In this document: positions 9,918-12,423 of the stretch, piece after piece
Layout of the letters: every line of letters begins with the position of its first letter
Position numbering within the stretch: position 1 is the stretch's first letter
Assembly (NCBI RefSeq): GCF_006345805.1
Contig: NW_021824382.1
Span: forward strand, 1 to 18,983
DNA length: 18,983 bases
Direction: 5' to 3'
DNA from: Octopus sinensis
Taxonomy: Eukaryota
Program-made: the position numbers and the translations under genes
Notes under the pieces: generated by a model
Database searches by the model: none
What the model saw: the letters and a program-made list of their open reading frames with translations, nothing else
Told to the model about the DNA's origin: nothing

Positions 9918-10100
9918 TGATAGATCGTTAGCTACTACACGCATTTTTTCTCTCCTGTTTTTTCTGTGATTCTTTCTGTCAAAGAGCGTAGGCTCGAAAC
10001 GTGAAAGGCTTTTTCTATTCCTGGGCGCTATACTAATACATTTGTTTGTTTGTACTCCGCCTGCCTTCGTTTTTTGTTTATTTTCGTAAACTTTCCCTTT
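9918..10100 (+). mobile_element. Family X copy 1: short (TA)n-flanked element with a minimal hammerhead-like motif
   Basis: Homologous to 10448-10625 and (inverted) 12216-12423. Motif tcttt-CTGTCAA-A-GAGC-gtag-GCTC-GAAA-C-GTG-aaagg at 9971-10008. Confidence 0.85.
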
Positions 10101-10447
10101 ATATATATATATATGCGTGGTTGTGTGCTATTATATTCGTATAGTTTTTATACGTATGTTTGCGGTTTGTATGTTTGTGTGTGTATCTATGTGTGAGAGA
10201 GTGCGCGCGGCGATGTTAGTATACGTACGCATGGGTGTGCCCGGTTATCGTTCTATATGTACGTGGGTATGCGTGTGTGCGTGTGTGTAACACACATGCG
10301 TGAGGTTTTGTAAATGACCAGAAAACAGAGATTGCACCTGTGCATGTGTGTATGTGTATGTACAGAAACATGCACATCGGAATGTAAAGGTGTTTATATG
10401 ACATTATTAACGCATGTATATATATATATATATATATATATATATAT

Positions 10448-10625
10448 ATCGTTAACCACTACAGACATTTTTTCTCTCCTTGTTTTTTTCTGTTCCCCTT
10501 TCTGTAGAAGAGCGTCGGCTCGAAATGTAGAAGACTTTTTTCTATTCCTGAGCGTTTATACTAATACATCTGTTGTTTTGTACACCACCTGTCTTCGTCT
10601 TTTGTTTTTTCGTAAAACTCTCCCT
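10448..10625 (+). mobile_element. Family X copy 2
   Basis: Lies between two (TA)n tracts. Motif cttt-CTGTAGA-A-GAGC-gtcg-GCTC-GAAA-T-GTA-gaag at 10498-10533. Confidence 0.85.
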
Positions 10626-11320
10626 ATATATATATATATATATATATATATATATATATATATATATATATATATATTACATACCATATACATATATATA
10701 TGTGTATATATATACATATATATATGTGTGTAATACATACATGTATATATATATATGCACCAATGATGGTTACTGCTTGTGCGGGAGCGTGTTGCGCATG
10801 CGATGGCATATCTGCATACGTGTGCACCTGTGTGTATTTGATAATACCTGCGTGTGTGTATGCGTGTGCGCGTGTGTGTAAGTGTGTATGCTCGAATATG
10901 TGTACGCGTGCGCGTGTCTGTGAGAATGTATGTGTGAGTATGTGTGCGCGTACGTATCTCCGGCAAAACGTTGTATTTCCAATTATATCCTACGTGTAAG
11001 TATCCTCAACTGCAAGCCACCCTCTGCTCCCTTCCACCATCCTTTTTTCTTTCTTACGCTTCACCCTCTCCACTCCCTTTCTCTTTACTCTCCTAATTTA
11101 ATTATTATTTATTTTTGTTTTTGTAAATGCTTCTGAATTTCACTTATTTTAAATTAATATTCTTCTCTTCTCCCCATAAGTACGCACACATAAACACACA
11201 CACATGCAAACATATATGTATATATATATATATATATATATATATATATATATATGTTATATATATATATATAACACACACACACAAATACGCACATAAA
11301 CATGTATATTTATATATGCA

Positions 11321-11442
11321 CTATCTATCTATCTTCTATCTTCTATCTATCTATCTATCTATCTATCTATCTATCTATCTATCTATCTATCTATCTCTCT
11401 CTCTCTCTCTCTCTATATATATATATATATATATATATATAT
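11321..11442. repeat. (TCTA)n-(CT)n-(TA)n compound microsatellite
   Basis: Directly visible. Confidence 0.95.
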
Positions 11443-12215
11443 GTGTTATATATGTGTATATATATATATTATATATATATATATATATATTATGTGTGTG
11501 TGTGTGTGTGGTGTGTGGGTGTGTGTACAGATATGCATATGTAAATGGCTATTCATATTTACATTATAAGCGCATGTGTTTTTAATTATCTTAATTAATT
11601 AAAATCTCATTAATAAAGTAGAAATTGGATGAGCGATCAGTAATTAAGAGTAACTAGTGTTCACTGCACATGTAGCATTACATGGCATATGAAGATCATG
11701 TATGTGCATTGCGGTGTATATACGTACACACCGAGACACACATATATGTTTATGCCTACACATAAAATACATAGGGACATATACATACACACACACACAC
11801 ACATATATATATATATATATATATATATATATATATATACATATATATATCCTTATTCCTATTAGCATGTAGAAACACATATGTGTATATATATATGTGT
11901 GTGTATAATACTTAGACATAACTATGGATCTCTGTGTATACAAACGCAAACGTTTGCAGTAATATGAATATGCATATATATGTATGTGTGTGTGTGTGTA
12001 TGTATGTATGTATGTAGATATCTTTATATATACCTTTATACATGCAAAGATATACGCACCTATTATTATATAATGATTCATTTTCTAAATGCACTATGCA
12101 GTTTACAAAGTAGCTATACACATGTATAGACAAATATATATGCATGCGTTCATGCACATGCGCATAGTTTTTGTGTGTGTGTACACATATACCTGCATAC
12201 CTATATGTATATATC

Positions 12216-12423
12216 TAAAGGGAAAGTTTACGAAAATAAACAAAAGACGAAGGCAGGTGGAGTACAAACAAACAAATGTATTAGTATAGCGCTCAGGAAT
12301 AGAAACAGTCTTTTACGTTTCGAGCCTACGCTCTTCGACAGATACACAGAAAAAAACAAGGAGAGAAACAAGGAGAGAGAAAAAGGGAGAGAAAAATACG
12401 TGTAGGAGCTAACGATCTATCAT
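12216..12423 (-). mobile_element. Family X copy 3 (inverted)
   Basis: The - strand reads CTGTCGA-A-GAGC-gtag-GCTC-GAAA-C-GTA-aaaga (12341 to 12309); the ends coincide with those of copy 1. Confidence 0.87.

Follow-up and report, generated by a model that had tools for sequence, protein, structure and literature searches.

The three related repeats in the window (the whole 18,983-nucleotide stretch of Octopus sinensis DNA analysed here) are the 3′ ends, or pseudo-LTRs, of a Penelope-like retrotransposon of about 4.4 kb and of the Neptune/Nematis type, and they carry a minimal hammerhead motif with U at core position 6. This U6 is characteristic of the whole lineage, and comparison of its subfamilies indicates that the hammerhead motif probably stayed under selection after U6 arose. 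The best explanation, to which we give roughly an even chance, is that the U6 motif is an attenuated hammerhead, slowed and still functional, under selection in active parent elements. Hammerheads are nearly universal in some Penelope-like clades, are weak in vitro and are reported absent from other clades. The family provides a natural experiment, with more than 15,000 exact copies that share an altered U-turn base while the other core positions are fixed, and with naturally occurring A6 copies in those subfamilies as ready controls. At stake is whether position 6 accepts more change than mutagenesis would lead one to expect or the fold serves a purpose other than catalysis; in practice, a motif search that insists on CUGANGA would overlook the whole U6 family.

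Window copies and their Penelope-like parent element

The window copies align over about 180–205 bp (Table 1); copies of the family in general have their 3′ end in common and begin at variable 5′ positions. Their alignment reproduces the three-copy consensus proposed in an earlier note made from the letters alone, with U at position 6 in all three. It also bears out the private lesions that the note had seen in each copy, so that no window copy is identical to its subfamily consensus. The note had further described a TA-embedded element of 180–210 bp. TA-rich sequence indeed lies on both sides of copies 1 and 2, whereas copy 3 is bordered by TA-rich sequence on its 3′ side alone, and there imperfectly, and the proposed length reflects where the window copies were truncated rather than the size of the element. 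We regard the window copies as dead, ordinary decayed repeats and predict no activity for any of the three. A single inverted insertion was considered as the origin of copies 1 and 3, but the two face each other tail to tail across 2.1 kb and are 87% alike, which makes independent insertions more likely. No hammerhead appeared among the 150 of 188 Rfam matches listed for the window; this null is uninformative, because Rfam gave no hammerhead match in three A6 copies either.

Table 1 Penelope-like 3′ ends, hammerhead motifs and TA tracts in the window
Feature	Position	Strand	Description
(TA)n tract	9872..9916	.	Target flank of copy 1
Copy 1	9919..10098	+	5′-truncated Penelope-like 3′ end; closest subfamily S3 (92.8%)
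Copy 1 minimal hammerhead	9972..10007	+	U6 at 9979; additionally G8A and H17G lesions
(TA)n tract	10417..10449	.	5′ flank of copy 2
Copy 2	10447..10625	+	5′-truncated 3′ end; closest subfamily S4 (89.0%)
Copy 2 minimal hammerhead	10498..10533	+	U6 at 10505; lesions in loop II, C15.2U and stem I
TA-rich tract	10625..10756	.	3′ flank of copy 2
Copy 3	12219..12423	-	5′-truncated 3′ end with local CT-rich expansion; S3 is the best-scoring subfamily
Copy 3 hammerhead core	12310..12341	-	U6 at 12338; core intact; stem I 5′ strand partly deleted

Walking upstream from the copies led through a low-complexity 3′ UTR into an open reading frame (ORF). A 100-residue piece of this ORF, used as a query, returned 9,963 candidates. 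We scored 150 of them and fetched the source locus together with 20 of the loci that had the longest open frames (21 in all). The longest frame comprises 835 amino acids, has no in-frame start and contains an RVT_1 domain (E=9.5e-8, above the Pfam cut-off) and a GIY-YIG match that falls below the curated cut-off (Pfam E=0.004–0.006); a fully intact ORF was not found among the long-ORF loci examined. The reverse transcriptase (RT) motifs IKPADKG (DKG) and YIDD are present in the ORF, a CX4CxxC linker at about residue 702 of the protein P0001 is conserved in relatives, and C-terminal GIY-YIG motifs with CCHH residues align in 23 sequences (the ORF and 22 homologs). The closest protein homologs are 55–58% identical to the ORF, which had no matches in the PDB. 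Within the 21 loci, 26 of 27 cores are U6 and the remaining one is C6. Two cores lie about 4.4 kb apart in five of about 20 long-ORF loci, and one further locus, L144, makes a sixth; the six pseudo-LTR pairs are 88–99% identical. These ORF-bearing parent loci with the same motif demonstrate the tie to Penelope-like pseudo-LTRs that the earlier note had suggested.

The element thus combines the features of endonuclease-bearing (EN+) Penelope-like elements, namely an RT with DKG in a single ORF, a C-terminal GIY-YIG domain with CCHH, partial tandems that form pseudo-LTRs, and 5′-truncated copies. It also has the CX2–5CxxC linker between RT and EN and the (TA)n insertion bias of the Neptune/Nematis type, an assignment made by layout, as the homologs carried no clade names for an RT tree. 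Its youngest subfamily is 0.6% diverged. No GT..AG joint of the kind left by a 5′ spliceosomal intron was present among the joints listed in three contig sets whose RNA status was guessed.

To describe the target sites, we used 68 copies picked by a 3′ anchor, regardless of the hammerhead motif. (TA)3 occurs within 60 nt 3′ of the anchor in 62 of these, compared with 342 of 3154 background windows (10.8%), although part of this enrichment is the element's own junction TA. Nine tandem junctions, in subfamilies ranging in age from the oldest to the youngest, contain such an element-own short TA stretch at the point where solo copies end, and this stretch could pair with a nicked target. At three loci (L131:2190–2220, L257 and L302), the TA stretch and about 12 following bases are retained across this whole age range, making the tandem junction a candidate priming or promoter element.

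Position 6 across the lineage

Counts of exact motifs in the 2.72-Gb genome gave U6 in 15,475 of 16,071 (96.3%), A6 in 182 and C6 or G6 in 414. A reversed-pattern control returned no motifs genome-wide, so the 15,475 U6 motifs are not due to chance. The variant is therefore not local, as the earlier note had allowed it might be: the genome-wide consensus is U6, rather than canonical CUGANGA. The anchor-picked copies agree, with U6 in 45 of 46 readable cores and A6 in none (22 copies were truncated or unreadable).

A6 copies are scattered over subfamilies. An ancestral A6 subfamily seemed a candidate, as old flanks surround 25 of the 27 CUGAUGA copies that we fetched, yet the oldest subfamily is itself mostly U6: among its 656 motifs, the first 100 listed have 77 U, 19 C, 4 A and 0 G at position 6. 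Because this subfamily was already U6, we consider the A6 copies to be back-mutations in old copies. The 19 C6 among the 100 listed (L286–L315) compare with 9 U-to-C changes at the following position, and may represent a small C6 lineage.

Comparison with relatives indicates the direction of the change. A sister lineage, here called Y, which has the same stem II and 11,308 exact motifs, shows A6 in 100 of 100 listed (L176–L205). Among 80 related metagenome-contig loci, 15 have a same-strand motif, comprising 13 canonical motifs, one with C4, one degenerate motif with G6 and none with U6; these relatives from other hosts thus keep A6 in 14 of 15. Together, lineage Y and the other-host relatives show that U6 is derived. 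The supplement of PMC4209133 gives CUGANGAH as the consensus of metazoan Penelope-like hammerheads.

In lineage Y, 67 of the first 100 motifs listed (of 11,308) have C4, a second lineage-level change of the U-turn in the same genome, and one subgroup of Y combines a stem I mismatch with C at H17. A shared alternative helix, strengthened by U6 here and by C4 in Y, is not supported, as P(4:16.2) is 0.01 or less in the latter.

Motif conservation and candidate functions

We sorted 145 copies by flank features into seven subfamilies, with two copies unassigned and A6-selected loci left out; S6 is based on two near-identical copies and S7 on eight. Copy extraction required a loosely motif-like match, which may bias single copies and affects the consensuses little, because the anchor-picked set has the same motif. 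When the seven consensuses are compared, variation touches 2 of the 36 motif columns and 59 of the 120 in the flanks (Fisher p=5e-7), or 22 of 67 in the 3′ flank alone (p=0.0014 versus the motif), so the stronger conservation of the motif that the earlier note had made a test of its reading is indeed found. Parsimony on the subfamily tree places five changes in the motif, three at N7 and two at H17 (A/U only), and 81 in the 120 flank columns; in the 29 constrained motif columns about 20 changes are expected and none is observed. Positions 7 and 17, where the motif varies, are those that catalysis leaves free.

All seven consensuses have the extra base after A9, G10.1–C11.1, stem II, GAAA, the palindromic 15–16 segment, UH and a stem I of at least three pairs; at position 6 their U departs from the CUGANGA core of a minimal type I hammerhead. 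The bases C3, G8, A9, G12, A13 and U16.1 are unpaired in a simple predicted hairpin, yet they are invariant, which would fit an active-site constraint better than a plain stem–loop. No successful subfamily has gone back to A6, but the constancy of U6 itself is not significant, as one column would remain unchanged with a P of about 0.5 at the flank rate. Other 3′-end blocks are also invariant between subfamilies. The stem covariation that the earlier note had sought does not exist within the family, where the stems are invariant, and appears when relatives are included: across 16 related motifs, stems I and II are 93.8% paired, with double changes in seven of eight pairs and no equal among 500 shuffles, a covariation that is partly circular because the rows were selected by a pairing descriptor. 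In contigs of four runs, whose RNA status was guessed, depth is greatest over the motif in 4/4, as expected of the block most common to the subfamilies.

Directly seen are the element's anatomy, the lineage-wide U6, the conservation of the motif, the (TA)n flanks and the junction TA; from these we infer how an attenuated ribozyme could work. Reading through a tandem pseudo-LTR/ORF/pseudo-LTR unit would yield a transcript with two motifs spaced by about 4.4 kb, which could pair through their ACGU palindromes into a double hammerhead. This would cut slowly after GUA or GUU, perhaps with protein help, and release a unit-length or circular template for the element's RT/endonuclease to copy into nicked (TA)n DNA. 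Slow cutting may be tolerated because the priming end, which every copy has, lies within the roughly 105 nt that follow the cut site on its 3′ side. In support of a working ribozyme, the motif adjoins long ORFs in the parent loci. A natural A6C core has been reported to cleave at <0.1/min (PMC3088659), and metazoan Penelope-like minimal hammerheads are described as cutting weakly even with normal cores, in an account that leaves room for other functions (PMC4209133).

Several results count against this reading, and some of them favour a non-cutting RNA signal, a somewhat less probable alternative in which useful catalysis was lost with A6U and the segment, still hammerhead-shaped, was kept for another purpose, most likely as a putative RT/endonuclease handle about 105 nt from the priming end. 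A published mutational scan reports low activity for every single or double change of the CUGA turn except the 3–8 swap (PMC9901934), and Naiad elements, reportedly without canonical hammerheads, still multiply (PMC8557442). Insertion junctions also bear no footprint of cleavage. A first count placed 11–12 of 51 loci at the hammerhead cut site, but the signal was gone in a replicate on GUA subfamilies (cut site, 2 of 33; +1/+2, 7; +2/+3, 4) and in a matched control (8 of 86 loci at the cut site versus, at two sites of similar microhomology, 5 by strict or 7 by loose counting at TAATAC and 5 at TAGG, with 19 at ATAC); by these hand counts among the first 100 matches listed per search, junctions follow microhomology to the TA target. 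Folding points the same way in part. The monomer with U6 and U7 is predicted to form a rod with a U6:A15.1 pair (P=0.98), and forming the double hammerhead is predicted to cost it about 7 kcal/mol, but outside the U7 subfamilies the rod is not strong (P=0.3–0.6 for the pair with other N7) and A6 copies also fold into rods, in other registers. A signal that no longer cuts would be consistent with the turn change and stem I mismatch of lineage Y and with one contig that is intact across the cut site (from a run whose RNA status was guessed). Loop II is invariant too, although its four columns alone are not significant. Speaking against a non-cutting signal, change is limited to the two catalysis-free positions while G8, G12 and C3 are fixed.

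The same pattern makes it improbable that the motif is a passenger, or a DNA-level part of the pseudo-LTR promoter whose RNA fold no longer matters. Penelope-like promoters are located in pseudo-LTRs according to a review (PMC6765202), it has been suggested in print that hammerheads may simply parasitize these elements (PMC8557442), and the invariance of the stems within the family leaves no internal covariation. However, a passenger should drift as the flanks do, and a DNA role gives no reason for change at N7 and H17 only, nor for covarying stems in relatives.

A further reading, less probable than not, is that the active-site geometry was selected through seven successive subfamilies although the core alone cannot cut usefully, the motif being either a non-catalytic RT handle or an enzyme rescued by the RT protein.

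Known relatives and other features of the window

The closest known motif is the minimal hammerhead of metazoan Penelope-like pseudo-LTRs (Cervera and de la Pena 2014, PMC4209133). As described there, it shares with the motif found here the U-rich 5′ flank, a stem I of 3–5 bp, the extra base between 9 and 10.1, G10.1–C11.1, GAAA, the UH site, the palindromic ACGU without a stem III, and the location in pseudo-LTRs that mostly occur as solo truncated copies. It differs in its CUGANGAH consensus, and the core variant described in that account is U3–A8. As the U6 motif has the placement of these hammerheads but lacks CUGANGA, we class it as a variant rather than a member. A natural change at position 6 is reported for the phage Bcep176 A6C hammerhead, with low but detectable cleavage (Perreault et al. 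2011, PMC3088659); that case is one phage sequence with C, whereas the motif here has U, is fixed in its lineage in more than 15,000 exact motifs and has no stem III. The literature searched, which extended to neither Lunse et al. (RNA Biol 14:1499) nor some supplements, held no report of a natural A6U hammerhead.

For the element as a whole, the published outline of Neptune/Nematis-type EN+ elements (Craig et al. 2021, PMC8557442) matches in the RT, the CX2–5CxxC linker, the C-terminal GIY-YIG with CCHH, the partial tandems as pseudo-LTRs and the microsatellite targets. The likeness is one of layout, not of a tree, and the hammerhead core here is non-canonical. Non-LTR retrozymes, as characterized in a preprint (bioRxiv 10.64898/2026.07.22.740005), are likewise short non-coding Penelope-related sequences with a type I hammerhead, but the window copies are ends, truncated to different lengths, of an element that carries an ORF. 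The window contains no head-to-tail array with a hammerhead in each unit, the hallmark of retrozymes, and its copies are dispersed.

Other repeats surround the three copies. An inverted pair of another hammerhead-like repeat end (14420–14560 on the minus strand and 14690–14850 on the plus strand) flanks a hairpin at about 14595–14672; with U at 8, C at 16.1 and no stem I it looks decayed, and it had no homolog among the loci compared. An insert with similar ends at 1921–2382 contains a CCCTAA telomere-type repeat (2237–2282), and SINE-like repeat copies occur in both orientations at 22–300, 1450–1900, 4860–5140 and 5610–5900. The fragment at 860–1240 we take to resemble the 3′ end of a CR1/L2-type retroelement ORF. 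Finally, a near-perfect palindrome of about 120 nt at 18175–18297, with a TA tract at its centre, is possibly an inverted insertion stub.
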